UHGV virus genome: UHGV-0021788
Length of the DNA stretch: 64,000 bases
Direction: 5' to 3' (one strand)
Origin: a virus
In this document: positions 23,810 through 62,051 of the stretch, piece by piece
Position numbering within the stretch: position 1 is the first letter of the stretch
Layout: each line of letters opens with the position of its first letter
Program-made: the position numbers and the translations under genes
The notes under the pieces: model-generated
Database searches by the model: none
What the model saw: only the letters and a program-made list of their open reading frames with translations
What the model was told of the DNA's origin: nothing

Positions 23810-24203
23810 GTATAGAAATATGCAGTGGACACAGATTTAATTGCAGGTAATTCCTAAAGCCTTACACCAAAACGGAAGGTGAAAACCTAAACGGCAACGG
23901 TACGAAAGTAGAAAAAACGTAAGGATGAATATAAGGTTAAATCCTAAGTATTCAAACATATTTATATATGTTAAAATGGATGTTCATGCAAGGAAGTTCT
24001 TAAGTGATATATTATTATATCATATGGAAAACCTTCAACGACTAGAGTTTAAATACTCGTAGGGTATAAGTGATTGATACTCGAAAAGGTCTGCCCTTAA
24101 CAGGTAGTGCTGAAGGTGAAGAAATAGTCTAGTCACTCTAGGAAACTAGGTGCTTAGAATTAACTAAGGTTTATAGTGTAGCGACTATAAATAAATATTA
24201 ACG
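23810..24203 (+). mobile_element. Group I intron B (family 1 variant, no ORF, ~394 nt)
   Basis: P 'taattgcaggtaattcc', Q 'ggatgttcatgcaagg', R 'ccttcaacgactagag' (24033), S 'agaaatagtctag' (24127). Its 5' and P/Q regions are near-identical to the TMP intron K. Confidence 0.75.
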
Positions 24204-26685: not shown

Positions 26686-26740
26686 TTTTACTTTTAATAA
26701 AAAATATAGTATAATATAAGTAATGGGGGTGAATATTAAA
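26686..26740 (+). promoter_or_regulatory. Conserved promoter + RBS cassette (copy 5)
   Basis: 'ttttacttttaataaaaaatatagtataatataagtaatggggg'. Confidence 0.6.
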
Positions 26741-34519: not shown

Positions 34520-34562
34520 AATATAAAATATAAAATAAATAAAATATAAGATAAAAAGGAGA

Positions 34563-35228: not shown

Positions 35229-35275
35229 TTTTTATAAGTTTATGAGTATAATATAAATAAATGGAGGTGATGAAA
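35229..35275 (+). promoter_or_regulatory. Conserved promoter + RBS cassette (copy 7, weaker -35)
   Basis: 'ttataagtttatgagtataatataaataaatggaggtg'. Confidence 0.5.
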
Positions 35276-40340: not shown

Positions 40341-40373
40341 AATATAAAATAATAAAAAGAAAGGTGATTATAA

Positions 40374-42173: not shown

Positions 42174-42728
42174 ATGATTTTTGTGGATAGATTAGCATTC
42201 ACAAGCGATTTAATCGCAGACGATATAAGATGTAAATTAAAAGTTATAAGTAAAGAGGATGGTGAACCTAGCTATATAACTGTATGGAATATTAAAGGTG
42301 AAAGAAGACAAGAAGTATTAAATGAATTAAATACTATTATGGAATTACATAATGAAGATGATGAAAAATTATTTAATATGTTTTATACTAACCTTATCTT
42401 AGAATTTACTGATTTAGTAATGGATACTGATGATGTATTATTTTTATTAAATGATAGTACATTAGCTGGAAAAATGTTAATGCAAGAATTTAATGATATG
42501 ATATATGAAATACAATATGAAATAGCTATGGATAACTTACAACAAACTAGAAATTTAGCTATGGCTTTAATAACTCAAACTGCAATAGATGAAATGAATT
42601 ATGCACAAGAAAGAGTAGACAGAGCTAAAGATAAAAGAGATAAAAATATTTTTATAGATTTAGAAAAAGAAAAAAGAGAAAAACATCTTGCCTGTAAAAG
42701 AAAAGGAAATAAAAAATATAAAAAATAG
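42174..42728 (+). CDS. Tail assembly chaperone-like protein (184 aa, acidic/helical, basic C-terminus)
   Basis: Position between tube and tape measure genes; composition. Confidence 0.45.
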   Translation: MIFVDRLAFTSDLIADDIRCKLKVISKEDGEPSYITVWNIKGERRQEVLNELNTIMELHNEDDEKLFNMFYTNLILEFTDLVMDTDDVLFLLNDSTLAGKMLMQEFNDMIYEIQYEIAMDNLQQTRNLAMALITQTAIDEMNYAQERVDRAKDKRDKNIFIDLEKEKREKHLACKRKGNKKYKK

Positions 42729-42731: not shown

Positions 42732-43157
42732 GTGATTGAATTGGTTTTTGATTCAATGGGACAACTAGAAGCATATGTATTAAGGGCAATGAATGATTGT
42801 GCTAAATTAAGTGCAGATAAAATGTTAGATATAATGACAGAAGAATTAGAAAATAGAGTTTATGATAATTATTCACCTAACATATATGTAAGAACAGGTG
42901 ATTTGATGAATACACCTCAAGTAATTTCTGCTAATTCAACTGGAATGCATACTGAATTTGTAGATAATGGTGGTTGGTTTAGTTTAGTAGGTGCAACAAA
43001 AGGGCAACATTTCTTTGCTTTAGAAGGATTAGAAGGTGGTCATTCTTGGGGAAGAGAAGCAACGAATGCTTACCCATTTGCTTACACTAGATGTCTTTCT
43101 GAAATACCAGATTATTATAGAAAATGTTTAGTGGCATTTGGGATACCAATAGTTTAA
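42732..43157 (+). CDS. Second tail-assembly-chaperone-position ORF (141 aa), same frame as the previous ORF, separated by a single TAG
   Basis: GTG at 42732; upstream ORF stop TAG at 42726-28 is in the same frame. Confidence 0.45.
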   Translation: MIELVFDSMGQLEAYVLRAMNDCAKLSADKMLDIMTEELENRVYDNYSPNIYVRTGDLMNTPQVISANSTGMHTEFVDNGGWFSLVGATKGQHFFALEGLEGGHSWGREATNAYPFAYTRCLSEIPDYYRKCLVAFGIPIV

Positions 43158-43191: not shown

Positions 43192-46100
43192 GTGAGCGAA
43201 TTTGATATAAGAATTGGTACGCAACTAGATACTAGTAAAGCGTTACAAGAATTAATGGAATTTGTCAAAAAATATGACAATAAAGAAAAGATAAATATAG
43301 ACATAGGTCAATCAAAAGGTGCTAATAATGTAAAGAATACAACTAAAGCTATGAAAGAAATGCAAAAAATAGCTAAGACATTAGGAAATACAAAGATTGA
43401 CGTAGGTAGTAACATAGGTAAAGCAACCAATGAAGCTACCAAATCATTAGAAAATAGTATAGATAAACAAGCCAAATCTATTGCTAAAATAACTAGTGGT
43501 GCACAAAGAGATTTAACTAAAGATGCTCAAAAGGGTATTGAAAATAGTCTTAAAGGTATTACTACAGAAATGAAGAATACCCAAAGAAATGTCGACAAGA
43601 TGATTGGTACTCTTGAACGAGCTAAGAAGGTTGAATTAATAGACCAAAAAGGTTTAGATGAAGGATTAGCTAAATTAAAAGATATGAAAGCTAACCTTAG
43701 AATAGACAATGTTGGTGATGTAGAGAAAAAATTAGGCGAAGTAGCAAATGACTATAAAAGATTAATGTCAGATGCAACTAAAGAAGCATTTAATAATGTT
43801 GAAGTATCAGGATTATTAGAGGATTTAAAAGTTGTTAGAGAAGCTATGTCAGCTAAAAACATGGACTTAACTGGTGTTGATACTTTAATTTCTAAAGCTA
43901 AACAACTTACTTCTTTAAGTGTTGACCAAATGTTAAAACAATATAAAGAGTTAAGACAAGTATTTAGTAAAGAATTAAAGATACCATTAGGTTTAAATGG
44001 TGTAATGAATGCTGAAACTGCAATTAAAAATGTTTTAGATTATAAAAACAAATTAACTGCTAAAATTTCAGTTGAAACAAATTCAGAGCAAGTAGATATT
44101 TTAAGAGATAAAATAGTAAGATGTGATGAAGTTGTTAAACAACTTGAAGGAGACTTAAATTTAGTAGGTAGAAGTACAGCATTAAACTTAATGGAACAAT
44201 CCAATGAAAGAGAATTAGATACATTAAGTGCTAAGTTAAAGAGATGTAAGAATGATTATGCTAACTTAGAAAAAGAAAGACAAAGATTAAATAGAGATAG
44301 TAGATACATTGGAACAGAAGATTTAAGTAATATAGAAAAACAATCATTAGCTATAAAGAAAGCTCTTGATAGTTTAAATATTGGAAATTTAAATACAGAT
44401 AAAATAAATAAAGTTACTGGCGATATAAATAATTTAAGAAAAACAATAGAATTAACTGGTAATTCAGCTAAAAAATTAGATATAGAAGCAACAGTTAAAG
44501 TAGATATGAAAACTGCTCAAGACCAATTAAATGGTATGTATTCTGCTTTAATAAAATCTAATAAATCTACCGTAATGGTTAAAAAATATAAAGATGAATT
44601 AGAAGGATTATTTGATTTATCTAAAACTAATCCAGGTGTAGCATTAGATAAAATAAGTGGTTTTATAGAAAAAGTAAATAAAGAAGCAAGTAATAAAGGT
44701 TTAGGTAAGATAACTGGTGGTTTAGACCAATATAAACAATATTTAAAAGATTATGAAACATTAGTTAAAAAGGCTAGTGGTACTACAGATATTGGTTTTG
44801 CAAAAGCTTACAAATCAGAAGTTACACAAATAGAAAAAGCATTAGACCAATTAGAAAGTGGATTTAATCAAACTCAAAAATCTATGGCTAAAGCTTTAAG
44901 ATTAGAATCAATTAATAAGAACACTCAAGAGTTTACTAATCAAGTTGAAAAATCTATTAAGAAAACTCAAGAATATAAAAAAGAGTTACAAACTCTTAAT
45001 AAAGATGTAAATTTTGATGGTCTTACTTCTAAATTAGGTCAAAAAGTCAAAGAAGAATTTGACGGAATGATTAACAAAACTAATCAATTAGAAAAAAGAC
45101 TTGGTAATATGTTATCATCAGGTAACATAAATACTACTGAATTATCTAAATTAAAATCAGAACTTGAAAGTACTTTTTCTGGTCTTTCTAAACTTAAAGA
45201 TACTAGTATTAAAATTAAAACTGATGAAACTATATCAGGACTTAATAAAATTAAAAAAGATTTAGAATCATTAGGTCAAGATACTAGTCAAATAGAAAGA
45301 GTTATTAATGCATTAAAACAACTTAAAGCTAATTTCAGTGGTGGTACAGCAGGTTATAAAGAATTAGCTAATGGAATAAAAGCTATTGGAAAAGATAATA
45401 ACTTGGAAAAACTAAATAGTTCTTTAGAAAAATCAACTAAAAAATTTAATAACTTAGCTAAGGTTGTTGGAGAATTAAAGGTTAAAAATATAGGAAATAT
45501 AGACCAAGGTGCTTTTCAATCTTTAGACAGTCAAGTTGCACGAATACAATCTCATATAGAAGGTTTAAATAAAAAAGATATATCTTTAATAGATGTTAAA
45601 AAGGTTGAAGCTGAAGTAAATGAATTAAGCAACTGTGTAGAAAAAACGAGTAGTGAATTAACTCAGTATAGTAGATATTTAGAAGAATATAAAAGATTAT
45701 CTAGCCAAGCAGGTAAAACAAATGATGTTAATTTAGCTACAAAATATCAACAAGAAGCAGAAGGTATAAAAGGTGTATTAACTCAATTAGAAAGCGAATT
45801 TACACAAGCTCAAAAATCTATTGCTCAAGGATTAAAAACAGATGCCTTCTCAAATGCTAATGAAAAAATGTCTTCTGAAATTAATAAAACAATTAATACA
45901 GTTGATGGTCTTAAAGAAAAACTTAATTCATTAAATAAAGATGTACATTTTGAAAATATGACATCTGAATTAGGTAAAGGATTAAATGACCAATTTAATA
46001 CTTTAACTAGTAAAGGTGAAGAATTAAAAAATAAATTAAGTAAAATATTAGCATCTGATAATGTGGATATTTCTGCTTTAAGTAAAATTAAAAAAGAAAT

Positions 46101-48327
46101 AAATGAGTTTGCAAGTGAAGTTAATAATTTAAAAAATTCTGCAATGGATAATGTTATTAGAGAATCTTTTGATAACATTAAAATACCTAATTTAAATAAA
46201 CAACTAGAAGCAGTTAAAGATTTAATGTCACTTAAAAATATGGATACTAGTGGTATAGATGCCTTAATAGAAAGAACTAAAAAACTATCAAGCTTAAGCG
46301 TAGATAAAATAGGTCAAGAATTTAAGGAAATACAAAATGCACTTGGTAAAGAAATTAATTTACGTTTAGGTACTAGTGGTATTAAAGATATAGAATCTGC
46401 ATTAAAAGTCATATTACAATATAGAAATGAATTAAAAAATAAAATAGCAGTAGAAACAGACCCATCAAAAGTAAAAGACCTTAATAGTCAATTAGAAAAA
46501 ACTGAAAGCATAATAGAAAAACTTAAAGGTCAAACAAGTAATGGGCTTGGTGCAAGTTTAATTGGTGATGCTGACAAAAACAATTTGAAACAATTAGAAG
46601 ATACTGCTGATAAATTAAAGAAAACATTCTCTAATTTAGAAAACGAAGTAAATAAATTAAACAATGAAGCATTGAATAAAGTTGACATAAGTCAATTAAG
46701 AGAAATGAATGAAGTTGTTAATGATGTAAAGAAAAATTTAGCATCTATTGGAGAAGGAAATGTTAATGTTAATTCAATAAATAAAACAGCACAAGACATA
46801 GAAAAATTAAAAGGACTAATAGAAAACACTAAAAAGACAATTAGTGATATGAAATTGGAAGTTTCATTTAATGTTAAATCAAATGAAGCAGAACAATATT
46901 TAGCAGGTTTTGAATCAGCATTATTAAGATTAGGTAAATCAACCAGTGGAATAAATGCTTTAAAGAGTGAATTTGAAAGTATAAAAAATTCAGCTAATGG
47001 AAATTTAAGTAGTGCCATAAAAATGATTGATGACTTTATTAACAAATTAAAACAAATGGGTAGTAAACAAGGCTTAGGCAACATAAGTGGTACTATGTCT
47101 CAATATAAACAATATACTAAAGAATTACAACAAGCCATGAGTGGGGCATTAAAATCTAGTGGTTCTGATACAGCTAAAGGATTTGAACAACAAGCTGAAC
47201 GAATAAAGAGTGCTATAAAACGTTTGGTTGCAAGTTTCAAAGAATCACAAAGAGAATCGGCTAATGCTTTTAATGGTAGTACATTTAGTGGTTTTTCTTC
47301 TAAATATGAAGCTGAAATAAATAAAGTTGAAAAAAGCATAAACAGATTTAAATCATCAATGCAAAACTTAGATAAAGCTGTAAACTTTAAAGGCTTTCAA
47401 ACAAATTTAGGTAAAGGTTTATCTGAAGAATTTGACCAAATAATGGCGAAAGCTGAACAATTAAGGGATAAATTAAAGAGTGCATTATCTTCTGGTACAT
47501 TTGATATAAGTGAAATAAATAGAATAAAAGATGAATTAAAACAAGTTGAACAAGAAGCAGATTCATTAAAACAAAAATCTATAGTATTAAAATGTGCTGA
47601 AAGTATAACAGAATTAGAAAGACTTAGTGGTAAGATAAAAGATATAGGTGGAGACACATCAAAAATAGAAGAATTAAAAAATAAATTTGTTACACTTGGT
47701 ACAGGTATAAGAGAAGGTACTACAGGAATAGATGATGCAATTTCTAAATTAAAATCCTTATCTTCCGAAGCACAAAGAACTGCTAGTTCTTTTGAATCAA
47801 CTACTGGTAAAATAGGTTCTTTTGGTTCTAAAATACAAGGTTTCTTTAGTTCTATAAAGAATTCATTTAGTACTTTTACTATTGGTAATTTAATGGCTGA
47901 TGGTATAAATCAAGCTGTTTATCAAATAAAAGATACTATAACAGGTTTAGATGAAGCAATGGCTGAATTTAAAAGGGTTGCTCCTGATAACTTTAGTTTA
48001 AATACATCTAATTTACAAAGTGTTGCTAATGAAGCAAGAGAAATAGGTATTAGTGTTGGACAATCAGTAGAAGATGTTATCACTGGAATGAGTACTGCAT
48101 TACAAGCAGGTGCAGGTGATATTAAAACAGCTTCTGAAATAGCTAAGAGTTCTGCTATATTCCAAAATGTTACAGATATGAGTGCAAAGGGTGCTTCAAA
48201 AGCTATTTCTTCAATGGTTAACCAATATTATGATATGGATTCAGCATTAAATCAAGTTGACCACGGTGTAGGTAAATCCGTAAAAGGGTACAACAACCTA
48301 ACCGAAGCGATGGATTTGGTAATTGAT
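43192..48327 (+). CDS. Tape measure protein (TMP) exon 1 (~1712 aa); 3' end approximate
   Basis: GTG start after 'AAGAAAGAGTGGTGG'; long coiled-coil repeats; conserved TMP region '...NLTEAMDLVID'. The ORF-track tail 'LPFILEII*' is intron sequence conserved with intron J ('ttgccgt(c)tt..ata(g)aaata...attagaggg'). Confidence 0.65.
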
Positions 48328-48615
48328 TTGCCGTTTATATTAGAAATAATATAAATTATTAGAGGGCAAAATCGGTGAAGACTAAGTTTTTATAAATATG
48401 TTGATACCGAGATAACTTATTAGATTGCGAAAGGCTAATAAGTATTGTAGAGCATAGGAATTGAATAAATATAATATTCCCAAGAGTGCCCTCCATTCTA
48501 ACGTAAAAAGACGAGGATGAAAATATATGCCATACTGAGCTAGAATTGACTAGCTGATGAAAATGAGGGAAACCTCCAGAGCATAAGATAAAAAGCTTAT
48601 GGATAATAACAATAG
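48328..48615 (+). mobile_element. Group I intron H (family 2, no ORF, ~290 nt); boundaries approximate
   Basis: P 'aaaatcggtgaagactaagt' (48369), Q 'gataccgag' (48402), R 'gtagagcataggaattgaa' (48447), S 'gaaaatatatgcc' (48521), 3' 'gataaaaagcttatggataataacaatag'. Confidence 0.65.
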
Positions 48616-48640
48616 AAATTACGCTGGTTAGAATTAGCCA

Positions 48641-49008
48641 GGCTATATGGAAACATGTAGTACAAATCTCTTTTGAATTGCTGGAAAGGACTTAGAGCCT
48701 ATTGAACTACAACGTAGATGGAAACATCAAGCGTGAATGTTTAAAAATCAATAGGATTGTTTAATCAGCAGGTAAGATTCTAAGTAATAATTTTATATTA
48801 TTATATGAATAAACTTCAACGACTATCCCTTGGATGTTGAAATACATCAATAGGAGTACGGCTCAAGTGATTGGAGTGGGTGAGAATCCCTTAAATGGAA
48901 GTGGAAGAGGACTTATAAAGGTTCAAGATATAGTCTACTCTCGTAGGAAATCTACGAGCAGTCCTTTTTTGGACGGTATATGTGTAGCGAACATATATGA
49001 ATATTAAG
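48641..49008 (+). mobile_element. Group I intron I (family 1, no ORF, ~368 nt); 5' boundary approximate
   Basis: P 'gaattgctggaaagg' (48676), Q 'taatcagcaggtaagattc' (48764), R 'aacttcaacgactatccc' (48823), S 'aagatatagtctac' (48928), 3' 'gaatattaag'. Retains 'atgaataaacttcaacg', the sequence found at the 3' end of HEG insertions. Confidence 0.75.
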
Positions 49009-49396
49009 GAATAACTTTGCGATTTCATCTGATGGTGTAACAGAAGCATTACAACGTGGTGGTTCTGTATTATCTAACTATGGAGTAGATTTAAAAGATT
49101 CTATTGCAATGATAACTGGGGCAAATGAATCTTTACAAGACCCCGCTCGTATAGGTAATGGTTTAAAATCTATAGCAATTAACCTTTCAGGTATTAAAAC
49201 AAATGCAAAAACAGGTGCTCTTGAATTAAATAAAACAGCAAAAGCATTGCAAGAAACTGCTAAGATAGATATATTTACTGATAGTACTAAAACACAAGTT
49301 AAAGATGTTGTTACTATAATGGATGAAGTAAAAGATAAATGGGCTTCTTTAACTGATGTTGAACAAAAAGGATTGTCAGAAGCTATAGCTGGTAAT
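49009..49396 (+). CDS. TMP exon (conserved TMP core '...NNFAISSDGVTEALQRGGSVLSNYGVDLKDSIAMITGANESLQDPARIGNGLKSIAINLSG...')
   Basis: Open frame from the intron-I terminal G through 'AIAGN' at 49396; the downstream TAA (49400) and the next 50 nt are closed in all frames and so are intronic. Confidence 0.7.
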
Positions 49397-49768
49397 ATGT
49401 AAGATTAGTAAATTTATATAAATTTTTATAAAATACAAAAATCTTAAAATTGCCGTCTTTGATAGAAATATTAAAGATAATTAGAGGGATGTATCGGTGA
49501 AGCCTAAGTCGAAAGATATGGTAATACCGAGGGTATCTTAACAGAGAATATCCGTAACGCATAGGGAGTGAGCGATATTGTTAGCAATAACCTCCCCACG
49601 AGCTTCCTCCACGATTATATATAGGATAATCACTTATAGATGTTGCTACTATAAGTTCTAACGTTAAACGAGAGTGAAAATATATGCTGGACTTATGAGA
49701 AATCATAAGAAGTGGATGTGTGAATCGACACACTATTAATAGATAAAAAGCTCCACGATAACAAATCG
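49397..49768 (+). mobile_element. Group I intron J (family 2, no ORF, 372 nt)
   Basis: P 'gtatcggtgaagcctaagt' (49490), Q 'aataccgagg' (49521), R 'ccgtaacgcatagggagtgagcg' (49551), S 'gaaaatatatgctgg' (49677), P9 'gtggatgtgtgaatcgacacac...ctccacg'. Junction 49396(U)|49769 gives in-frame '...AIAGN-KTQAGVFQALMTGW...'. Confidence 0.75.
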
Positions 49769-52700
49769 AAAACCCAAGCCGGTGTATTCCAAGCATTGAT
49801 GACAGGTTGGGAAAGAGTTCGTCAATTCCAAAAAGAATACAATGAAGGTTGGATGATAGGTTCAGCCCAAAGAGAAAATGAAATCTTTATGGATTCCATT
49901 GCTGGTAAAATGAATACTTTAAAAGAAAATCTTAAAGGATTATTAACTAGCAATGTTACAACAGATATGTTTAAAGGTCTATTAGATGGTGCTAATAAAG
50001 TAGTAGAAGCAGTAGGAAAAATAAGTTCAAGCTTAGGTAAAATTGGTTCAGCTGGTGCTTTAGTAGGTATTTCATCTTTCGTAAAAACTTTAGCAAATTT
50101 GGATAAAGCTAAAACAATAGGTGGTGGTTTTACAGGATTTGATAAAGTTTTAGAAGTAATACAAGGTACTGCTGTTACTTCTTCTGGTGAAATAAAAACA
50201 CTAGGCGATAGTTTTAAAGAATTAGGTGTTAAGACAACTCTATCTAAAGTAGCATTAGGATTATTTAAAGGTGTATTAATGGGTATTGCATTTACTGCTG
50301 TTGTTAAAGGAATAGATGCTATGGTAAAAGCATGGGATAATTATATTCATGCAACAGAAAATGCAGTAAAGGCTTCTAAGGAAAGACAAGATGGATTTAG
50401 AGATGAAGCACAAACATTAAGTACTAAAAAATCAAGTCTACAAGAAATAGCTAAAGAATATGATAATTTAAATAATAAATCTGATAAAACTGCTGAAGAT
50501 TTAACTAGATTAAATGAATTAAAACAACAAATAGGACAAATAGCTCCTGACCTTGTTAAAGGATATGATTCAGCAGGTAATCCAATATTAAATCTTACTA
50601 CTAGTATGCAAGGTTATATAGCTGAATTAGATAAAGCAATTGCTAAACAACGAGAATTATATAATTATGAAACTAAAAAACAAGCACAAGAATACATGAA
50701 GAAAAATGACACTAAAAATGGTGCTCAAGACCCAGATAGGAATTCTTATGAAACTGAATTAAATCATCTTCAAAATGCAAATGATAGAAAAACTAGAGAA
50801 GAAAAAAGATATACTGGTAGCTTAAAAAATATTATTAAAGATAGAAATAAATATAGAGAAGACCAAGAAAAAAGCATTAATGAAAGATTAGAAAGGATTA
50901 GAAACGCACAAACAGAAGTTAATAATAGAGATGCTACAATTGAAGATAATTATGTTAACGAATTTAATAAGAAAACCAAATTAGCTGAAAAAGAACAAAA
51001 TAAATTTGCTACCTTTATGAAAGGGTTAAATTGGGGTACTTATGGCGAAGCAGAAGCCAATAGAATGTCTAAAGGTTTACAAAAATTATCTGAAAAGACT
51101 GCATTCACAACTCAAGAGATGACAAAAGGATTATCAGGTAGTCTATCAAAAAAAGTTTCAGAAGAAATTTCTAAAGTAAATGCAGAATTCAAAAAAACAA
51201 ATGCTGTAAATGAATGGGGAAAAGGTTTAAGAAAAATAGCTAATGAAACAGGAAAATTTGATTTTTCAAATTGGAGTAATTACTTATCAGAAGTTCAAAC
51301 TCGTTTTGAACAAGGAGTAAGTACTAATGAACAATATACACATTCATTAGGAATTATGGCTGATGCTATGGAAGATTTAACTGGTATAGATTCAGATGTA
51401 TTCTTACCAGCTTTAAAAGGTGGAGCAGATTTAGAAGAAGCCTTTAAATCAGCAACTGAAGGCTTAAATGGTTTTATGAGTGCTTATGGTTCTTCTACTG
51501 CAAAATTACAACAAGGTGATTCATTTGCTAAAAAATTAGAATCTCAATTTAAAGAACTTCAAAATTTTGAAACTGAATTTGAAGGTCAATATGAGATGCA
51601 AGGTAAAGTTAGTGTAGATTGGTTAGTAGAACAAAAAGATAATGAAGATTTACCTAAGCAATTAAGAACTATAATAGATGCAGTAACAAAAGATGGAGAA
51701 GTAACAGAAGTAGAAGAAAAATTAGTATTAGCTTGTGAAACAGAAATAAAAGATAAAGGTAAATTAGAACAAAGCACAATAGATGCAATAAATCAAGTTA
51801 TGGATGGAACATGGGATGTAAATAAAACTATTGAAATAGGTGGTATGGAATTTACATCATCTGAAATAAGAGAATTAATGTCATTGGCAGACCAATTAGG
51901 TATATCTTTAGAAGGTTTAAATATTGGTGATACAGGATTAGAAGGAGAAAATCAAAAAGCTCAAGCATTAAAAGATACAATAGATTCAATTACAGATAGA
52001 GATATAAAAGTAGCAATAGAAGCAGAAGGATTTGAGAATTCAGACCAAGTTAACAACATAATGACAGTTATTGACCAAATAGATGGAAAACAAGCCAAAG
52101 TCGATTTTATAGCAGATGCTTCTCAATACTTTATGGAAAATGATAGTGTTGAATCAGCAATAAAAGCTATGCCTGATGAAATAAAACTTAAATATAATAT
52201 TGGTGTTGAAGGCGATGAAAGACTAGAAGGAATACAAAGTAGACTTGAAAAATTACCAAAAGATATTAGAACTATGGTATATGCTCAAACATATGGTGTT
52301 GAAAATGTTGAAATGCTAGAAAACATAGTAGATGCTTTTGGTGGAAAAACTGCAACAGCAATATTACAGTTAGATGGTATAGATGAAGCTCTTAGAAATG
52401 CTAGTACATTTGAGGAACAATTAAAAATAATTGGAGATTTTATATGTCAACCTGGAGTAGAAATAGAAGGTAAAGATGACATAATTAAAACAATTGATGA
52501 AATATTAAAGAAATTAAAAGAAACAGATGAAAAAGAAAGTAATCCTAAAATAAATGTAGAAGGAGATACTTCTGGTGCAGAGAAAGTAGAAAAAGAAGTA
52601 GACAATGTAGGCAATAAAAAAGGTACTGCTAAAGCAGATGTGGATGGAGATACTTCTGGTGCAGAGAAAGTAGAAAAAGAAGTAGACAATGTAGATGGTA

Positions 52701-55700
52701 AAGAAGGTACTGCTAAGACAAAAATAGAAGGAGATACTTCTGGAGCTGAAAAAGTAAAGAAAGAAGTAGATAATTTAGCTGTCAACAAAAAAGGTACGGT
52801 TACTTTATTAGTAAATGGTCAAGAAAAAATAGCTGAAGCTAAAGTTGTCAAAGGTCAATTAGAAGTAGATGGTAAAGCAGTTACAAGTATTTCTGTTAAT
52901 GGTAAAGACCAATTACCAATAGCTATTAATGAAAAAGGTCAATTAGAAGTAAATGGTCAAGCTATAACTGATGTAACTGTAAAAAATGGAGACCAATTAA
53001 AATTAACAAGAAATGAAAAAGGTCAATTAGAAGTAAATGGTCAAGCTATAACTGATATCAAGGTATATGGGAAAGAAAATGTTAAAGATGCAAAAAAAGA
53101 TGTTGATGATTTAACCAAAGATAATAAAAATGTTAGTATTAACATTGATGTTTCATTAAAAGAAACTGTTGGTGAAATATTATCAAGATTTGGATTAAAT
53201 AAGAAAACAGAAAATGTTGAAATTAATGTAACATGTAATGATAATGCAACTCCAGTATTAGAAAAAATAATGGCAAGACAAGATAAAACTATACAAATAA
53301 AAGTAGACTGCCAAGATAATGCAACATCTAAAATAAACAGTATAGCTAAAATAGGAAATAAAACTGTAACAGTTACAATAAATTGTCAAGATAATGCAAC
53401 ATCTAAAATAAACAGTATAGCTAGTATGGGTAATAAATCTGTAACAGTTACAATAAATTGTCAAGATAATGCAAGTTCTACAATAAATAGAGTTACAAGT
53501 GCACCTTCTTCTAAAGCAATAAATGTTGTAGTAACTTGTACAAATGGTGGAGCAGTTCTTAATACTCTTTCTCAATTAGCTAGTAAAGTAATACCTAGTA
53601 AAAAATTTACTATAAACTGTACAGATAGTGCTAGTAGTGTAGTAAGTAGAGTTAATGGTTTAAAAATATCTGATAAGAAATTTACTATAAATTGTACAGA
53701 TAATGCAACTGCTAAAATAAATAAAGTTATTAGTAAAAAAATACCAAATAAATCATTTACTATAAGTTGTACTGATAATGCTAGTAGTAAATTAAGTAGT
53801 ATTATAAGTAAAATAAGTAATATTCGTAGTAAATCAGTAACAATTACTACTAATCATGTAAGCACAGGCGACCATTCATCTGTTGGTGAACCAACAATTG
53901 TTGATTTACAACCTCAACCATTTAGTAGTACTCAAGCTTCTAATCCTCAAGTGCAATCATTAGGAGAACAAGTTCAAGTATTAAGCGATAGTGTGCAACA
54001 ACAAACTGACAACAATAATGAAGTTAGCGTAATGGCTAAGAAAACATATAAAGCTAATATTGATACAGGTTTAACAGTAAGTGCAGTTAAATATAATATT
54101 GATTTATTAACTAACATGACTAATATGCTTAAAAAATTAGGAACTCAAGTTGATATATTAAAAGCTAAACAAGAAAGAACTTGGGGTACTGCAAGTGCTA
54201 AGTTACTTAGAAATCAAATTTCTTTACTAACTAAACAACAAGATTTAACTAAAATAAATATTAAAAACATGGAAGGTATGGCTAAAAAACTTAAAGGTAG
54301 TTTACAAAAACAAGGATTTAAGTTTAAAGATGATGGAACTATAAGTAATTACAATAGTAAGCTTATAAAAATGCAAAAAAATGTTGAAAGTTTAGAGAAA
54401 GCTGAAAAAGCACTAGAAGACCAAATAAGTAAAACTGAAAAACAAATTTCAAAATCTGAAAAGAAATCTTCAAGTAAGAAGAAATCAACTAGTAAGAAAA
54501 AGAAAAGTACTAGTAAGAAAAAGAGTACGAGCAAAAAGAAGAAAACTTCAAGCAAGAAGAAATCAACTAAGAAAAAGAGCACTAAGAAGAAAACTACTAA
54601 GAAGAAGAGTGCTAGTAGAAGCAATAGAAAAACTACATCAAGTAAAGCTAGTAAAAAGAAGACTACTAAGAAGAAAAAATCAACTAGTAAGAAAAAAAGT
54701 ACATCAACTAAGAAGAAGAGTACTAAAAAGAGTACTAAAAAGAAGACTACTTCTAAGAAGAAATCAACCACTAAGAAGAAAAGTACATCTTCAAGCAAGA
54801 AATCAAAAGCAACTAAAGCATTAGAAAAGAAAAAGAGCGGATTAGAAAAGAAAAAGGATGCAATAAGCAAACAATTAGAAAAAGCACAAAAAGAATTATC
54901 AGAAACTCAAAGCAAATTAAATGAATATTATAATTTACAATTTAGTGAAATTCCTGAAGCTCAACAACAATGGGAAGAATATGCTAATGCTATAGCAGAA
55001 GCTAAGGCAGAAATAATTAGATGTGAATTAGAAGCTAAAACATTCTTTAAGACAGTTAAGATGGAAATGAAAGATGCTATGATTAGCAGAAATGAAACTT
55101 GGGCAGATACATTTATGTTGAAGGCTGATTTAAGTAGTTGGTCTAAAGCAATAGGATATATTAAAGAAGCTAATAAATTATTAGCAAAAAATCAACAACA
55201 TCAACAATCAAAATTAGAAACAGCTCAAGCAAGAGCAGAAGATAACAAGGCATTTTTAAAGAAACAAGGATTTAAATTTGATAAAAATGGATATGTAACA
55301 GGTGCTGAAAAAACTTTACAAAAACTTAAAAAGAAGAAATCATCACAAGAATATGATGCTATAAAAGAAGCATTTGATAGTTATGTTGATGATATGTATG
55401 AAAATATTCCCAAAGCTGAAAATGAATGGTGGAAATTAGAACAGGAAATAAAAGAAAATGAAAGACAAATAAAAGAAACTACTAAATCTATGAATGATTT
55501 AGTTAATTCAGCTAAAGTAGATAAATTAACTAGACAATTTGATGTACTTTCAAATACTTTAGATATATTAGACCTTAAAATGGAACGTGCTTATGGAGCT
55601 AATAAAATAGACTATATGAAACAACAACTTGATATATTATCTAATATGAAAAGTAAGAATCAAGAAATCATTAATCAAAATACTGAGTTATTAAATAATA

Positions 55701-56615
55701 GTAAGAAACAATTAGTTAAATATGGCATTACATTTGATGAAGATGGCAATATAGACAATCTATCAAAAGCATTGAAAAAATTAGATAATCTACAAGATAT
55801 GGAAGATTTAAAAGATTTAGCTGATGAATATAATGATTATAAAGATTCAATAGATGATGCTAGTAAATCAATTGAAGAAGAAACTAATAAACAACTTGAA
55901 TTAAAAGATTCAATGATGGAAATTAGAGAAGAAATGAGAAAACTTAGAGATGATGCATGGGTTAAAACTTATGAAAATGGTCTAAAAGTTATTCAAAATC
56001 GTATTGATACAATAGATTCTTTATTAGATTTAGAAGATGAAAATCAATTTAGTTTACTAAATCAAAAAATTGAAGAATATAAGAATTTAACTAAAGCGAC
56101 TGAGGATAGTTTGGCTTATCAAAAACATAGAAAAATCACTATGCAAAAAACATTGATTGATTATGGTTTCACTATTAATGATGATGGTACAATAGATGGA
56201 ACTGCTAATAAATTAGAACAACTTAAAAATACATTATCTGAAACTGAATTTGGTATAGTAAGTGATACATTAGAAGATTATTTTGATACTGCTTTAGATA
56301 CAATTCCTGAATTAGAAAGAGAATTAATAAAATATCAAAAAGATTTAAAAGATATACAAAATACTAAACTAGAAAAGACTAAAACTATTGAAGAAAAAAT
56401 TACTGAAATATATAACGATGAAATAGATAAAAGAACTAAAAAGATACAAGAAGAAGCAGAAGCACAAACTAAAGCACTTAATAAAGCCAAAGAATCTTAT
56501 CAGAGATGGAGAGACGAAGTTGACTATAAAGATGATTATAATAAACAATTAAAAACTGTTGAAGATTTACAAAAGAAAATAGAAATAGCAAAACGAGATG
56601 ACAGCCTAACTGGGT
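49769..56615 (+). CDS. TMP main exon (~2282 aa)
   Basis: Open frame from the intron-J terminal G (upstream of annotated 49796 start) to 'DSLTG'; TM-like hydrophobic hairpins near the N-terminus of this exon ('LGLFKGVLMGIAFTAVVKGI'), long coiled coils. Confidence 0.7.
52557..52800 (+). repeat. Three tandem ~84-nt in-frame repeats in TMP ('EGDTSGAEKVEKEVDNV..K.GTAK')
   Basis: Copies starting at about 52563, 52646 and 52730. Confidence 0.75.
52845..53060 (+). repeat. Tandem 'KGQLEVNGQAITD..V' repeats in TMP
   Basis: 'gaaaaaggtcaattagaagtaaatggtcaagctataactgat' duplicated (52930, 53015) plus a diverged first copy. Confidence 0.7.
53215..53840 (+). repeat. ~9 tandem Cys-containing ~20-aa repeats in TMP ('TINCQDNATSKINSIA' / 'FTINCTDNA..K...')
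   Basis: Repeated 'aattgtcaagataatgcaa' / 'aattgtacagataatgc' units. Confidence 0.7.
54460..54820 (+). repeat. Lys/Ser/Thr low-complexity tract (~120 aa of 'KKKSTSKKK...') inside TMP
   Basis: Continuous 'aagaagaaatcaactagtaagaaaaag' style repeats; composition almost purely K/S/T. Confidence 0.8.
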
Positions 56616-56825
56616 AATGTTGCCCTAGTCGTAAAGTAATTTGCGACTGAAAATAGATTTAATTGCAGGTAATCCCTAAAGCTCTACACCACAATATATC
56701 TGAAAAGAATATATGAAGGTACGAAAGTAGAAAAAACGTAGAGATTCTCATATGGTTAAATCCTAAGTGAGAGTAACAATGGGTGTTCATGCAAGGAAGA
56801 TTCTAAATTAAATTATTTTAAATAT

Positions 56826-56877
56826 TTTACTTTTAATAAAATAAGCAGTATAATATAAATAAGGAAGGGGTGAAATT
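56826..56877 (+). promoter_or_regulatory. Conserved promoter + RBS cassette (copy 9)
   Basis: 'ttttacttttaataaaataagcagtataatataaataaggaagggg'. Confidence 0.6.
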
Positions 56878-58002
56878 ATGAAAACTAAGTGGACAAAAGA
56901 AGCAATAATAAAATATATAGAGGAACAAGATTATATTTTTATAAATTTTATAAAATTTGATAAATTAAGCTCAAGAATATTAATAAGATGTAATAATAAA
57001 AAGCATAAACCATATGAAGTTACTTTTGCTAATTTCAAAACTGGGAAAAGATGTCCAAAATGCAGTGAAATAAAAAGAAGAAAAAAAAGAACAATATGGA
57101 ATAAAGAAAAAATAATTGATTTTGTAGAAGATAATAACTATGAATTTATTGAATTTGTTAAATTTGATAAAATTGAAAGTATAATTAAGGTATGGTGTAA
57201 AAATTTAAAACATGAACCATATAATGTTAAATTTGCAAATTTTAAAAATGGACAAAGATGTAGAAAATGTTCTGATGAAATAAAAAGTAAAAAATTTTCG
57301 CATAATTATGAATATGTCAAAGAATATATTGAATCATTTGGATATAAAATGTTATCAAACGAATATATAAATTTACATAGCGAAATAAAAATATTATGTG
57401 ACAAACATGGGATATATAAGACAACATTTCAATTATTTAAAATGGCGAAATATAAATGCCCAAAGTGTTCGGATGAACATAGAGGAGAATATCATAAATT
57501 AAATTATGAATATATTAAAGAATATATTGAATCATTTGGATATGAAATATTATCAAATGAATATATAAATATGAAAACAAATATATTGGTAAAGTGTCCA
57601 AATGGTCATAAATCATATTTTACTAATTTTGATAGGTTTAAAAGAGGAGACAGATGCCCTTATTGTAACGAATCTAAAGGTGAGAAAAAAATTAATGAGA
57701 TTTTAAATAAATATAATATGAATTTTAAATCACAATATAAATTTAATAATTGTAAAAGTAAAAGAGAATTACCATTTGATTTTTATATATCTGATTTAAA
57801 TATAGCGATAGAATATGATGGAATACAGCATTATAAAATAATAGAATATTTTAGTGGACTTGATGGTTTCATAACCACTAAAATACATGATGTTATAAAA
57901 ACAAGATATTGTGAAGATAATAATATAAAATTAATTAGAATACCGTATTGGGAATATGATGATATAGAAAGTATATTAATAAAAGAACTTAATTTAAAAT
58001 AA
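56878..58002 (+). CDS. Intron-encoded modular homing endonuclease: 4 Cys/His repeats + Vsr/DUF559-like nuclease
   Basis: 'ELPFDFYISDLNIAIEYDGIQHYK...NIKLIRIPYW'. Four ~65-aa repeats each with C/H...C..C ('CPKCSE', 'CRKCSDE', 'CPKCSDE', 'CPYCNESKGE'). Confidence 0.65.
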   Translation: MKTKWTKEAIIKYIEEQDYIFINFIKFDKLSSRILIRCNNKKHKPYEVTFANFKTGKRCPKCSEIKRRKKRTIWNKEKIIDFVEDNNYEFIEFVKFDKIESIIKVWCKNLKHEPYNVKFANFKNGQRCRKCSDEIKSKKFSHNYEYVKEYIESFGYKMLSNEYINLHSEIKILCDKHGIYKTTFQLFKMAKYKCPKCSDEHRGEYHKLNYEYIKEYIESFGYEILSNEYINMKTNILVKCPNGHKSYFTNFDRFKRGDRCPYCNESKGEKKINEILNKYNMNFKSQYKFNNCKSKRELPFDFYISDLNIAIEYDGIQHYKIIEYFSGLDGFITTKIHDVIKTRYCEDNNIKLIRIPYWEYDDIESILIKELNLK

Positions 58003-58175
58003 TTTAACATGAATAACCTTCAACGACTAGAATGCGAATTCGTAGGGTGTAAGTGATTGACACTCGAAAAGGTCTACCCTTAATATTAAGGTGAAGAAAT
58101 AGTCTAGTCTCATATGAAAGTATGAGCAGTTCATAAGAGAACGGTATATGTTTAGCGAACATATATGAATATAAG

Positions 58176-58795
58176 CGCAAAAACGTTTAGCTGATTTGAT
58201 GAAGGAATTAAAAGAAGAACAAGAAAATCTTGAAGATTTAGTTCAAGACAAAATAGATTCGGATATAAATAACATGTTTGATGACCAAATAGACAAGATA
58301 GAAGAAAATTCTGATGAAGAAGTTAAGAATTTGGAAAAAACATGGTCAGAAAGCAAAATAGCTGAAATGGTTAAACAAGCACTCGATACTGGAGTCTTTA
58401 CAGATATTGATGGAAATATCAAAACTCTTCAAACAGCATTAATGGATTTTGCTAATACAAGTTCTGATTATTTTGGAGTTATGGGTAGTTCATTAAAGAA
58501 AGAATTATTAGACAATCTTAATGTAGCATTGGAAACTATGAAAGAACTTCAAAAAATGTCAGATAATTATACAGCTCCTAATATAGATTATAGTAATACG
58601 GTACTTCCAAAAGATAGTACTATTAATACTTCTCCACAAGTTTCTAGTAATGTTGAAACTAATAATATTACAATTGGAGATACAAATATTACAATTCAAG
58701 GTAGTGCAGATAATGTTACTTTAGGAAAAGTAGATGAAATGTTAAAAGATTACAAAGCAAGTATTTGTAAGGAAATTGTTAAAAATATGAAATAA
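58176..58795 (+). CDS. TMP terminal exon (~206 aa)
   Basis: Open frame from the intron-K terminal G; annotated ORF 58196..58795 is its 3' part; terminator follows. Confidence 0.65.
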
Positions 58796-58871: not shown

Positions 58872-59582
58872 ATGGCAAAGCCTGATTATTTAAAATTTAA
58901 AATATGTAGTACTTGTAAAAACATATTGCATATAAGTAAATTTAATAAAAATAAAAAATGTAAATATGGGGTTTCATCTCGATGTAGAGAATGTGATAGA
59001 AAATATCATAAAAAATATTATGAGAATAATAAAGAAAAAATAATAGAAATAAATAAAGAATATTATAAGGATAATAAAGAAAAAATTTTAGAATATCATA
59101 AGGAATATTATGAAGACAATAAAGAAGAAATCTATAAAAGAACAAGACAATATGCAATTGATAATAAAGAGAAATCTAATGAATATAAAAGAAAATATAA
59201 AAAAAATAATCCTGATAAAATATTTAATGATAGTATAAAAAGAAGATTAAATGAAAAAACACAAGGTAACGGAATCACTAAAGAACAATGGTATGAAATG
59301 ATGAAATTTTTTGATTGGAAATGTGCTTATAGTGGAGAATATATAGGTGGAAATAATGATAATAGAACCATAGACCATATTGTACCTTTAAACAATAGTG
59401 GAGAACATGAAATTTGGAATTGTGTACCTATGTATCAACCTTACAACAGTGGGAAACGTGATAGAAATATGTTAGAATGGTATTTAAAACAAGAATATTT
59501 CTCAATAGAAAAATTAACTAAAATATATGAATGGAGAATATATGCATATAATAAATGGGGTGATGATATAAATGGCAAGTAG
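58872..59582 (+). CDS. Free-standing HNH endonuclease with N-terminal Zn-ribbon and Tyr-rich tandem repeats
   Basis: 'CSTCKNILHISKFNKNKKCKYGVSSRCRECD'; repeats 'NKEKI(I/L)E..KEYY.DN'; HNH core 'DHIVPLNNSGEHEIWNCVPM...N..K'. Confidence 0.7.
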   Translation: MAKPDYLKFKICSTCKNILHISKFNKNKKCKYGVSSRCRECDRKYHKKYYENNKEKIIEINKEYYKDNKEKILEYHKEYYEDNKEEIYKRTRQYAIDNKEKSNEYKRKYKKNNPDKIFNDSIKRRLNEKTQGNGITKEQWYEMMKFFDWKCAYSGEYIGGNNDNRTIDHIVPLNNSGEHEIWNCVPMYQPYNSGKRDRNMLEWYLKQEYFSIEKLTKIYEWRIYAYNKWGDDINGK

Positions 59583-60354
59583 TTTTTGGAATGGTAGCTT
59601 TTATTTCAATAATGTATATTCTGAAACTTTCAATGTTGTAATAATTGATTTTGATAGTTCGGATAGACTAAAACAAATAGGAAGTACAATTAATATAGAA
59701 TTAAATGAAGAAAATACACTTAATGGAAAAAAGAGTTATATTGAAGGAACTCGCACTTCTGAAAATATAATTTTACAATTAATGAAAAAAAATGGTGATA
59801 TATGGAGTGATGGAGATATAATCAATGTATATAATTGGTTATTCCAAAAAGATTTTAAAAAATTCCAAACAGTAGATTATTCTAGTGGATATAATCTATG
59901 TTATTATTTAAAAGCAGTAAGTTTTTCAAAATTTTTAACTCCTGATTTTAGGGGTTATTTAGAAATAGAATTTATGAGTTATGCTCCTTATTGCTATTCT
60001 ATACCAACAAACAGACTTAGTTTGAGTGCCAATGGTCAATCAGGTGTTTTATTTAATTATAGTAATCTATATGAAACATATAAACCAAAAATTAAAATAA
60101 CTGCTTCAAATAGTGATAGTATTAAAATATTAAATAATACAAATGGTACTTTTGTAGAATTAAGTGGATTAAACAATGGAGAAATGGTTACGGTAGATTG
60201 TGCTATGGGAACTGTAATAAACAGTGGTGGAGCTAATAGATTTGAAACATTAAAAAATTATAATTTATTAGAATTAGATAAAGGAAATAATAATATAACA
60301 CTTACTGGAAGTGCAAATATAGAATTTATTTGCGAATTTCCTGTAATTATATAG
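59572..60354 (+). CDS. Distal tail protein (Dit-like, 260 aa)
   Basis: Position immediately after TMP; size; overlapping start (coupled). Confidence 0.5.
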   Translation: MASSFWNGSFYFNNVYSETFNVVIIDFDSSDRLKQIGSTINIELNEENTLNGKKSYIEGTRTSENIILQLMKKNGDIWSDGDIINVYNWLFQKDFKKFQTVDYSSGYNLCYYLKAVSFSKFLTPDFRGYLEIEFMSYAPYCYSIPTNRLSLSANGQSGVLFNYSNLYETYKPKIKITASNSDSIKILNNTNGTFVELSGLNNGEMVTVDCAMGTVINSGGANRFETLKNYNLLELDKGNNNITLTGSANIEFICEFPVII

Positions 60355-60365: not shown

Positions 60366-62051
60366 ATGAAAATAAGAGGTGCTAAAGATTCATACAATCT
60401 AATATTAAGTAAAATGAATGGAAAAAAATTAGGTATCATACCTTGTTCTATTATAGAAAGTATGCAAAAGGGTGTTAAAACTGTTAGTGAATTTACATTT
60501 TCAGTTAATAAATATTATGGTGAAAATAATGAAATAAATCCTCTGTACGATGAACTTAAAACAGAAAGATTTATATTTTTAGATGAAGATGAATGTTATG
60601 TAATAAAAAATATAAGTGAAGAAAATGAGAAGAAAAAAACTATAACAGCTTATTCGAGAGAAAAAAAATTATTTAAAAATATAGCAGAATTTGAGGATAT
60701 TACACTAACATTAAAAACTCCATATGCTGATATAGAAGGTTGTTTTAGTTTAGATGAATTATTATATGATGCAACTGGTTGGCATGTTGGATATGTAAGT
60801 CCTAAAGTTTTATATAAATCAAAAGAAACAATATTGGATAATGTTACAGGGGAAATAATAGTAGAATTGACAAAGGAAGAAAAATTAAGATACCAAGAAA
60901 GTGTATCGTCAAATTGGTATGATTTTATTAATGATGATATATCAGAACAATTTGAATGTTTTCCTGTATTTAACAGCTATGATAAAACAGTTGATTTATA
61001 TGATGATGAAGAATTAGGTAATGACCCTAATTTAATGTTGTCTTATGACAATTATCTTAAGAGTATGGAAAAAGAAGATGATACAGAAGATATTACAACT
61101 GTATTAATATTATCAGGAAATGATGATTTAACTATAAGTGAAGTTAATCCTAGTGGTGATACTTATGTGGAAAATTTTTCATATTTTATGGAAAATGAAG
61201 AAATGAGTACTGAATTAATAAATGCATTAAATAAATATTATCAAATGGTAAATGTAAGAGCAGTAACATGGAATCAATTGAGAACAGAAAAAGAAGAAAA
61301 AACTGCTACATTAACACAGAAGAAAAATAGATTATTAATAGTTTATGCACAAATGAAATCTATTGAATTTACTATGAAACAAACTACTGATGAAAAGTTT
61401 AATGCTCAACAACAAGAAAGATTAGTAAAACTAAATGATGAAAAAGTATTATTAGAAAAAGAAGTAACGGAATTAGATGAAAACATTAGAAATATAGATG
61501 CTTCAATAGAAAATATAAATAAATTATGTAAGAAAAAATATGCAACTGATGAAAATGGTGTATTGATATTTACCGAGAGTTTATTGAATGAATTAAAAGA
61601 TTTTATATATCAGGATACTTATAGTAATGATTCTATTACAGATGGATTAACCTTAATGAGAATAGGTAAAAAACAATTAAAAGAAAGTTGTTATCCTACT
61701 AAAACTTGGACTATTGATTCTGTTAATTTTATTGAAAAATTAATTGATAATGGTTTTAGACAACATTGGAATGGAGAATTAGGCTTAGGAGATATGATAG
61801 TATTAAAAGGTGAAGAAACGATTGAAGTTGTATATTTAATAAATTATACACAAAATTTTAAAGATAAAACAATCGAATTACAATTATCTAATAAAAAAGA
61901 TGAAAATACATTTTCACTATCAATAGGTGAGAGATTAACACAAGGTAAAGAGGCTTATGAAATAGCTAAAAAAAGTAGAAGTACTATTAATAGAGTAAAT
62001 AAGAATAGAGTAGGACTTAATTATGACAAGATTAATAAAAAAATTTTATAG
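60366..62051 (+). CDS. Tail-associated lysin / tail endopeptidase-like protein (Tal-like, 561 aa)
   Basis: Position after Dit; size; coiled-coil centre. Confidence 0.5.
   Translation: MKIRGAKDSYNLILSKMNGKKLGIIPCSIIESMQKGVKTVSEFTFSVNKYYGENNEINPLYDELKTERFIFLDEDECYVIKNISEENEKKKTITAYSREKKLFKNIAEFEDITLTLKTPYADIEGCFSLDELLYDATGWHVGYVSPKVLYKSKETILDNVTGEIIVELTKEEKLRYQESVSSNWYDFINDDISEQFECFPVFNSYDKTVDLYDDEELGNDPNLMLSYDNYLKSMEKEDDTEDITTVLILSGNDDLTISEVNPSGDTYVENFSYFMENEEMSTELINALNKYYQMVNVRAVTWNQLRTEKEEKTATLTQKKNRLLIVYAQMKSIEFTMKQTTDEKFNAQQQERLVKLNDEKVLLEKEVTELDENIRNIDASIENINKLCKKKYATDENGVLIFTESLLNELKDFIYQDTYSNDSITDGLTLMRIGKKQLKESCYPTKTWTIDSVNFIEKLIDNGFRQHWNGELGLGDMIVLKGEETIEVVYLINYTQNFKDKTIELQLSNKKDENTFSLSIGERLTQGKEAYEIAKKSRSTINRVNKNRVGLNYDKINKKIL

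Follow-up and report, generated by a model that had tools for sequence, protein, structure and literature searches.

A predicted 4,329-residue siphovirus-type tape measure protein encoded by a gene with four group I introns in the virus genome UHGV-0021788

The closest annotated relatives of the gene treated here, a tape measure protein (TMP) gene at positions 43192 to 58795 of a 64,000-nucleotide (nt) stretch of the virus genome UHGV-0021788 (this whole stretch is called the window below), are found in large Clostridioides difficile siphophages; the nearest annotated phages by tblastn are phiCD211/phiCDIF1296T, AR1086-1 and LIBA2945/6276, with 25-32% identity. Phages of the phiCD211 type lack sheath genes and are siphoviruses (PMC5786514), and a review credits phiCD211-like relatives with 'intriguingly long tails' (PMC9784644). 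The TMP of phiCD211/phiCDIF1296T (NC_029048.2, coding sequences (CDS) 26972-28597 and 29182-35712) belongs to the same family as that of the window (PHROG 13137/10871), resembles it at 25-32% identity over the core and the C-terminal modules and has the same position in the tail module; however, it counts about 2,750 amino acids (aa) against 4,329 in the window, having neither the N-terminal duplication nor the arrays of GDTSGAEKV, KGQLEV and NCQDNA repeats nor the tract rich in lysine, serine and threonine (K/S/T tract). Its introns, one of each of the two families called A and B below, lie around a micro-exon in the core, at other codons than in the window, and its C-terminal region has none. 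The phiCD211 record splits the TMP into two CDS, of 541 and 2,176 aa, and places an Intron_gpI feature in the interval. Positions 28567-29181 of that record hold two introns, family A and then family B, with a 33-nt micro-exon (EKVGTALKTIG), and the record annotates one of the two; the annotated Met start of the second CDS lies partly inside an intron. The intron and micro-exon architecture is thus shared with this cultured phage and under-annotated there, even the reference record missing one intron and the micro-exon.

A siphovirus TMP of more than 4,000 aa has been described in the Thermus phages P23-45/P74-26, where gp96 has 5,002 aa and the tail is nearly 1 micrometre long (PMC10770324, PMC10034513); an earlier note on the present DNA had implied that its TMP was of unprecedented size, which the P23-45 protein contradicts (PMC10770324). 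There is no detectable sequence relationship between gp96 and the window TMP, the virion RNA polymerase and metallopeptidase domains of gp96 were not found in the latter, and the host of P23-45 is a thermophile, as opposed to the low-G+C organism predicted for the window phage; introns are unmentioned in PMC10770324.

Group I introns of the T4 td type share with those of the window a P1 of the GGGU/GCC type, the P3-P9 core motifs, the terminal G and the presence of an open reading frame (ORF) in a peripheral loop; differently from them, the window and its relatives have the wobble U apparently inside the intron at several family-B sites, and family A is divergent and below the gathering score. 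Three introns are known in the orf142 gene of phage Twort. Multiple group I introns, small internal exons and some endonuclease ORFs occur in Bastillevirinae polymerase, terminase and ribonucleotide reductase genes, and small internal exons and exon skipping have been described in multi-intron phage genes (PMC11878797); group I introns are also found in phage structural and tail genes (PMC3706429). In contrast to Twort and the Bastillevirinae, the host gene is here a TMP, with 11 sites among about six close genomes and up to seven introns per copy. Every one of these ingredients has a precedent; the novelty lies in how they are combined and in their degree, with a 4,329-aa TMP, four introns in the window and, over a set of near-identical genomes, 11 sites and as many as seven introns.

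The favoured reading, to which a probability of about 0.88 is given, is that the locus holds a single siphovirus-type TMP gene, from which four group I introns would be excised and whose five exons would be ligated, the product having a ruler role. Positions are window coordinates, and all TMP features lie on the + strand unless stated. The window has a G+C content of about 25%, and the genes from 17 kb to 64 kb are on the + strand. Within 43192-58795 the ORF list contains four long pieces (43192..48354, 49109..49402, 49796..56617 and 58196..58795), and all frames are stopped in the three gaps between them. Splicing in silico gives a CDS of 12,990 nt, encoding 4,329 aa (480 kDa, isoelectric point 8.3), and no stop interrupts it; that 13 kb should stay open by chance at 25% G+C is ruled out. 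The exons are the following.

43192..48320, + strand: TMP exon 1, aa 1-1709 plus 2 nt, with a GTG start
48616..48628, + strand: TMP micro-exon, 13 nt (a AAT TAC GCT GGT), which completes a Val codon and encodes NYAG
49010..49393, + strand: TMP exon 2, 128 codons (NNFAISSDG...SEAIAG), placed by PF10145 and the P0009/P0012 alignment
49769..56614, + strand: TMP exon 3, 2,282 codons, a continuous ORF
58178..58795, + strand: TMP exon 4, 205 codons and then the stop at 58793-58795, colinear with the phiCD211 TMP C-terminus

The junctions were set from uninterrupted homologues, intron-less alleles and phiCD211. A query with the spliced gene retrieved 23 related proteins; two of them, the uninterrupted P0009 and P0012, annotated as Peptostreptococcus tape measure proteins, cross junctions 1-3 without a break, reading AMD(L)LNY(A/S)GNNFAISS over junctions 1-2 and GLSEAIAGK(H/T)...FQALM over junction 3. 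In the homologue alignment the exon 1 N-terminus MSEFDIRIGTQLDTS is common to the homologues, and the NYAG supplied by the micro-exon corresponds to residues that they possess (AMDLVNYAGNNFAISS), the aligned proteins having (L/V)NY(A/S)GNNFAISS at this point. Junction 4 is colinear in the phiCD211 TMP, which reads RDSSLSG-QKKLKDLQKQLKEEQ against RDDSLTG(S)QKRLADLMKELKEEQ in the window. With ^ for the splice point, the predicted spliced junctions are GATTTGGT^AAATTACGCTGG(T/G)^AATAAC around the micro-exon and GCTGGT^AAAACC between exons 2 and 3, and the predicted junction-spanning peptides are DLVNYAGNNFAISSDGVTEALQR, GLSEAIAGK and DDSLTG(S)QK. The earlier note had proposed a single TMP gene of ~4,300 codons with four introns and a micro-exon; homologues and intron-less alleles agree with this, at 4,329 aa, and they also fix the micro-exon at 48616-48628, where the intron-less alleles are contiguous. 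The exon coordinates given there were right within 1-7 nt and needed adjustment: exon 1 ends at 48320, not ~48327, and exon 2 extends over 49010-49393, not 49009-49396, as homologues read AIAG^K and the extra Asn is absent. As to intron 4, the borders first proposed (56615/58176) are also in frame in the window, with one added Ser, and it is 56614/58178 that matches the intron-less alleles.

A scan of viral contigs revealed six loci on five contigs of 173-204 kb, whose exons are 91-98% identical to those of the window. In L003 and L006 no insert interrupts the sites of introns 1 and 2 (48320^48616 included), and the same holds for the sites of introns 3 and 4 in L003 and for that of intron 4 in L008. 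Without introns the sequences read exactly GATTTAGTGAATTATGCTGGCAATAAT, GCTGGAAAAACC and ACTGGACAAAAACG; the micro-exon region is contiguous as GT(G/C)AATTATGC(T/A)GGC, the intron-3 site reads GCTGGA^AAAACC in L003, and the intron-4 site reads ACTGGA^CAAAAACG in L003 and L008. Intron-less L003/L006 and the intron-containing alleles differ by synonymous changes at the -1 nucleotide (48320, 48628, 49393; GGT versus GGC/GGA, TTGGT versus TTAGT); the wobble U of P1 would be lost through them, and the targets of endonucleases might change as well.

The introns of the relatives occupy seven further sites, giving 11 sites in total, and every insert has family-A or family-B core motifs. The TMP gene has four introns in the window, four in L003 (none at a site used in the window), five in L006, six in L005, six in L007+L008 and seven in L004; the spliced frames are open in L003 (4,383 aa), L004 and L005 (4,357 aa each) and L006 (4,356 aa). 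Seven sites are at aa 1705-1878, in the TP901 core, and four at aa 4082-4229, within that part of the C-terminal region whose alignment with phiCD211 is best, and the other ~4,000 aa have none; such clustering is usual for homing elements, which recognise conserved sequence. At the level of sequence comparison, the exon-intron structure, the continuity of the gene, the family assignments and the conservation among relatives are established. The four introns are the following.

48321..48615, + strand: intron 1, group I family A, 295 nt, ORF-less; from RF00028, Alifold and intron-less alleles
48629..49009, + strand: intron 2, group I family B, 381 nt, ORF-less
49394..49768, + strand: intron 3, group I family A, 375 nt, ORF-less
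56615..58177, + strand: intron 4, group I family B, 1,563 nt, its P6 loop containing an ORF

Each intron is closed by a G (48615, 49009, 49768 and 58177). Intron 1 has a 5' exon with UUGGU at its end and the internal guide sequence GCCG, and a P10 of 4 bp with the micro-exon (AAAU/AUUU) can be read from the sequence; in intron 3 the guide sequence is the same and the P1 loop is longer. The family-A introns 1 and 3 share the motifs TTAGAGGG..GGTGAAG..TACCGAG..CTAACG..AATATATGC, and Alifold on four members of the family yields P2, P3, P4/5, P6 and P8 helices with 12 compensatory pairs. The family-B introns 2 and 4 contain classical R and S elements (TTCAACGACTA and GATATAGTC), and their DNA is similar to introns of Staphylococcus Twort-like and jumbo phages, Bacillus AR9/PBS1 and others, intron 2 in particular being similar to introns of Staphylococcus and Bacillus AR9/PBS1 phages. 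The RF00028 match of intron 2 (48619-48958) scores 68.9 bits, above the gathering score of 50 bits; an alternative register of this intron, 48628-49008, leaves the protein unchanged. RF00028 gave no match on intron 4 itself, because of the 1.1-kb ORF that it contains; its ORF-less sibling (L004 18324-18697) scores 59.7 bits, shows no difference over the initial ~210 nt, resembles it towards the 3' end and, because it otherwise matches intron 4, the ORF was assigned to the P6 loop. The alternative for intron 4, 56616-58175, adds one Ser codon. Rfam scans of the whole window, of 11 kb and of 4.4 kb gave one intron or none, whereas stretches of up to 2 kb score well; the negative scans of long stretches are therefore filter artefacts. 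Group II introns and inteins were rejected, as GUGYG...AY is absent and stops occur in all frames.

The assignment to the TMP family comes from the core domain and from the tail module around the gene.

47947..50041, + strand: TP901-type TMP core domain, aa ~1586-1933, spanning introns 1-3; TIGR01760 and PF10145

On the spliced core TIGR01760 reaches 66.4 bits, where the cut-off is 28.8, as a single stretch that covers profile positions 18-332 of 349, and on exon 2 PF10145 scores 47.4 bits against a cut-off of 33.2 (profile positions 87-201). The PHROG TMP families 13137, 4211 and 167 match exon 1, and PHROG 10871, also TMP, matches exon 3 with an E of 5e-150; by tblastn, exon 3 matches the TMPs of phiCD211, AR1086-1 and LIBA phages. 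Downstream lie the tail genes for Dit (59572..60354; PF20195, PF20753, PF22768) and for a minor tail protein (60366..62051; PHROG 6211). A search of 1.84 billion representative proteins gave 409 matches, and in the best 150 of these the longest homologous single ORF has 2,928 aa; the window lineage is therefore the length extreme of its TMP family, although intron-split genes are undercounted in that protein set. Exon-3 peptides found no relative in the contigs of 185,579 species representatives. The phage appears to be of a large siphovirus type, distantly related to the ~131-kb phiCD211-group C. difficile phages, with uncultured 173-204-kb contigs as its closest relatives.

The protein is composed of segments of very different nature.

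43693..47988, + strand: internal duplication in exon 1, aa 168-808 resembling aa 957-1599
50237..50329, + strand: hydrophobic membrane-span-like segment, aa 1999-2029 (TLSKVALGLFKGVLMGIAFTAVVKGIDAMVK), the sole one in a Kyte-Doolittle scan
52545..53813, + strand: repeat region, from Tandem Repeats Finder (TRF)
54428..54838, + strand: K/S/T-rich polycationic tract, aa 3396-3532, 137 aa

In a BLASTP of the halves, aa 168-808 and aa 957-1599 show 30% identity (E 6e-80), and the shorter relatives P0008, P0011, P0013 and P0016 have one copy only of this ~640-aa module; its duplication is ancient and doubles the model-predicted helical N-terminal region. Single-sequence AlphaFold2 (AF2) gives aa 2-801 81% helix, at a low mean pLDDT of 48. 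Transmembrane domains are listed in the P23-45 paper among the features characteristic of many TMPs (PMC10770324). TRF finds four arrays, as the earlier note had claimed: 84 nt x3.0 (52545-52797), 84 nt x2.4 (52850-53052), 75 nt x2.3 (53312-53487) and 75 nt x3.1 (53581-53813). The 28-aa units are GDTSGAEKVEKEVDN (three copies) and KGQLEVNGQAITD (about three), and the 25-aa units, (V/F)T(V/I)NC(Q/T)DNA(T/S)SKI(N)S, occur in about nine copies. Single-sequence AF2 models the 25-aa units as strands (pLDDT 70-87) and leaves the 28-aa units below a pLDDT of 45; over aa 2765-3150 the model has 44% strand and 4% helix, with no confident helix, and a Foldseek search of the repeat-region model against the PDB found nothing below E = 1.

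The K/S/T tract contains 64 K, 36 S and 24 T (90.5% K/S/T); the earlier note had described 120 aa of these three residues only, and the tract is indeed there, rich in K/S/T rather than restricted to them, with 114 of 120 in the best 120-aa stretch. The net charge is about +67 over a 300-aa block containing the tract, and its length of 136-137 aa is kept in four relatives despite substitutions. Repeats and low-complexity tracts had also been called unusual for TMPs, which does not hold: of the TMPs covered by one survey, 95.5% had homorepeats and roughly half had tandem repeats (PMC13585406). The C-terminal third is made of repeated ~150-300-aa modules (..G(F/I)xFxxDGxI..), present in phiCD211 too. 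The extra length of the TMP derives from the ~640-aa duplication near the N-terminus together with the repeat arrays. No enzymatic domain was found in the TMP by Pfam, NCBIfam or PHROGs.

Under the favoured reading, the whole gene would be transcribed as one pre-mRNA, from which four group I ribozymes, with introns 1 and 3 in the divergent family A and introns 2 and 4 in the classical, Twort/AR9-like family B, would excise themselves; self-splicing is here inferred. Ligation of the five exons, the 13-nt micro-exon included, would then create the 12,990-nt frame for a protein of 4,329 aa and 480 kDa, with the order helical N-terminus (duplicated module), TP901 core, hydrophobic segment, strand-rich repeats, K/S/T tract and C-terminal modules. 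By analogy with characterised TMPs, the protein would thread the tail tube in assembly from the Dit/Tal initiator encoded just downstream and would set the length of the tube, which is the ruler function proposed for it. The introns would be mobile parasites, intron 4 bringing its own endonuclease, and their targets would be the two most conserved stretches of the gene.

TMPs usually correspond to 0.126-0.175 nm of tail per residue, and 4,329 aa at this rate give 545-760 nm, a range that includes the ~0.6 micrometres predicted in the earlier note. From this rule, from the P23-45/P74-26 precedent and from the remark on phiCD211-like tails, we infer a tail of about 0.55-0.75 micrometres; the TMP, the longest of its family found in this analysis, predicts a tail of more than half a micrometre, on a phage of a low-G+C host. 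Several observations weigh against the reading of one gene for one long ruler. Both family-A introns fall below the RF00028 gathering score, intron 1 with 36 bits (48311-48553, E 3.6e-7) and intron 3 with 28.2 bits (49435-49709, E 7.9e-5). The intron-4 junction supported by the relatives has G and not U at -1, a departure from the group I rule. The ORFs upstream of the TMP gene, 42174..42728 and 42732..43157, received no chaperone annotation by profile hidden Markov models. All close relatives come from one metagenome (IMG/VR 3300045988) and are not fully independent. Finally, about 400-650 aa have no helical prediction (the strand-rich repeats in a low-confidence model and the K/S/T tract), so that the rule may overestimate the tail.

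This last point leads to the view that the TMP is single and the tail well under 0.6 micrometres, large parts of the protein being non-extended or trimmed by proteolysis, as is known of lambda gpH. It agrees with the single-sequence AF2 models, which have the 25-aa repeats as strands and the 28-aa repeats without confident helix, and with the low complexity of the K/S/T tract; however, such segments make up at most ~650 of the 4,329 aa, and the remaining ~3,700 aa at 0.15 nm would still give ~550 nm. The length of the K/S/T tract and the total length of the TMP are conserved among relatives, phiCD211-like phages are described as long-tailed (PMC9784644), and the P23-45 tail is extremely long though the N-terminal part of its TMP is an RNA polymerase (PMC10770324, PMC10034513); a short tail is rather unlikely on this evidence. 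The same P23-45 gp96, which contains a virion RNA polymerase (PMC10770324), is a precedent for an ejected effector or enzyme fused to the ruler, in which case size would reflect an added function and not length alone, and the K/S/T tract and strand-rich repeats, which have no assigned role, could be accommodated in this way. Such a fusion is improbable, since Pfam, NCBIfam and PHROGs detect no enzymatic domain, Foldseek gives no significant fold match for the repeat-region model, and the extra N-terminal length is a duplicated copy of an existing, model-predicted helical module. Automatic annotation presents the pieces as separate CDS, in phiCD211 and in the truncated metagenome proteins P0008, P0011, P0013 and P0016, as would be expected if the five pieces were separate proteins or a decaying split TMP gene whose inserts are never removed from RNA. 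Against this, removal of the inserts restores the frame in five genomes with nucleotide differences of 5-9%, an exon of 13 nt is too small for a gene, group I cores are present in the inserts, intron-less alleles exist, and the TP901 core would be left as non-functional fragments; we regard it as very improbable. Since automatic annotation fragments such genes, database TMP lengths and the tail predictions made from them are underestimated.

A further question concerns the register of splicing. At family-A sites and at site S4, frame and length are kept by a junction with a U at -1 and a G closing the intron; among the window introns, 1 and 3 have U at -1 (UGGU/GCCG) and intron 2 is compatible with it. 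At the family-B sites S1, S9 (L004-L006), S10 and S11, in contrast, the sole junction keeping the frame, the terminal G and the match to intron-less alleles puts G at -1, as in GGG^UAAUGUUGCCC, GGAG^UAAAUUAGCUCC and GAGG^UAACAUACAGCCUCC, the P1 wobble U being the first intron nucleotide; at S8 the -1 position is a C. Canonical U(-1)/omega-G junctions, enumerated for all the sites of the relatives, fail at S1, S9 (L004-L006), S10 and S11, where they give +1/+2 nt or a stop, and canonical cleavage at the sites with G at -1 would add 1 nt, breaking a frame otherwise conserved over 13 kb. In intron 4 of the window there is a G at both 58175 and 58177, so that both registers are in frame, in the window only: the canonical 56615^58176 (ACTGGGT^CGCAAAAACG) adds one Ser, whereas the non-canonical 56614^58178 (ACTGGG^CAAAAACG) has the same length as the intron-less alleles. 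As relatives have A at the equivalent of 58175, the non-canonical reading is favoured for this intron. Rescue of the splice register by frameshifting was rejected as far-fetched.

From these data it is tentatively proposed, as a possibility still more doubtful than not, that the TMP gene is an intron sink, with at least 11 sites (13 with phiCD211) in two conserved stretches, and that some of its family-B introns (S1, S8, S9, S10, S11) are spliced without a preceding U; if true, natural group I ribozymes would break the near-universal U.G rule for the cleavage site. Near-identical genomes with differing introns are a natural experiment on the colonisation of a conserved, essential structural gene by group I introns and endonucleases, and the same set bears on the handling of a 13-nt exon and on a possible relaxation of the 5' splice-site rule.

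Intron 4 is the one with a coding capacity of its own.

56878..58002, + strand: intron-encoded ORF, 374 aa, putative homing endonuclease that has zinc-ribbon repeats and, at its C-terminus, a nuclease-like region

This ORF matches PHROG 559 (E 1e-75), 9084 ('homing endonuclease') and 7140 ('intron encoded nuclease'), and the Pfam entries CapR and DUF4379 treble clef; neither NCBIfam nor a sequence search of the PDB returned a match. These profiles point to a putative intron-encoded homing endonuclease, whose C-terminus may resemble the Vsr-like EDxHD endonuclease I-Bth0305I. In L004 and L005 the intron lacks this ORF and is identical in other respects; the intron-less site, the predicted target, reads ...TTAACTGGACAAAAACG...

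In the surroundings of the TMP gene, the two upstream ORFs named above (184 and 141 aa), at the place where one would expect tail chaperones, are in the same frame and separated by no more than AAA AAA TAG GAT, which looks more like a possible stop-codon read-through than the usual -1 frameshift. In L003, a 202-aa ORF (2907-3515) lies directly upstream of the TMP start and shares its opening ~11 nt with the TMP gene; this ORF may represent a gene inserted there or, alternatively, an extension of the N-terminus that a stop interrupts. In the window the TMP stop is followed by a free-standing HNH/endonuclease VII-like gene (58872-59582) and then by Dit; this gene has no counterpart at the same position in L003, L004 and L006 and is present in L005. 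The left end of the window has an ORF of 2,244 aa on the - strand (1909-8643), and a search of the window for tRNA genes found 0.

Group I introns also occur in the window outside the TMP gene: two matches, at 23063-23392 (85.1 bits) and 26085-26392 (72.8 bits), are above the Rfam gathering score, and they are flanked by the ORF pairs 22590..23093/23408..23815 and 25045..25794/26723..27472. Family-A/B core motifs are found in five more gaps between ORF fragments of the structural module (~23839-24150, ~27473-27700, ~31171-32763, ~35027-36491 and ~40340-41702), three of which contain ORFs of the PHROG 559/9084/7140 endonuclease family, to which the intron-4 ORF also belongs (31417..32505, 35261..36187 and 40823..41536). 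Together with those of the TMP gene, these introns and motifs suggest that the window has, from 23 kb to 58 kb, a minimum of 11 group I introns.

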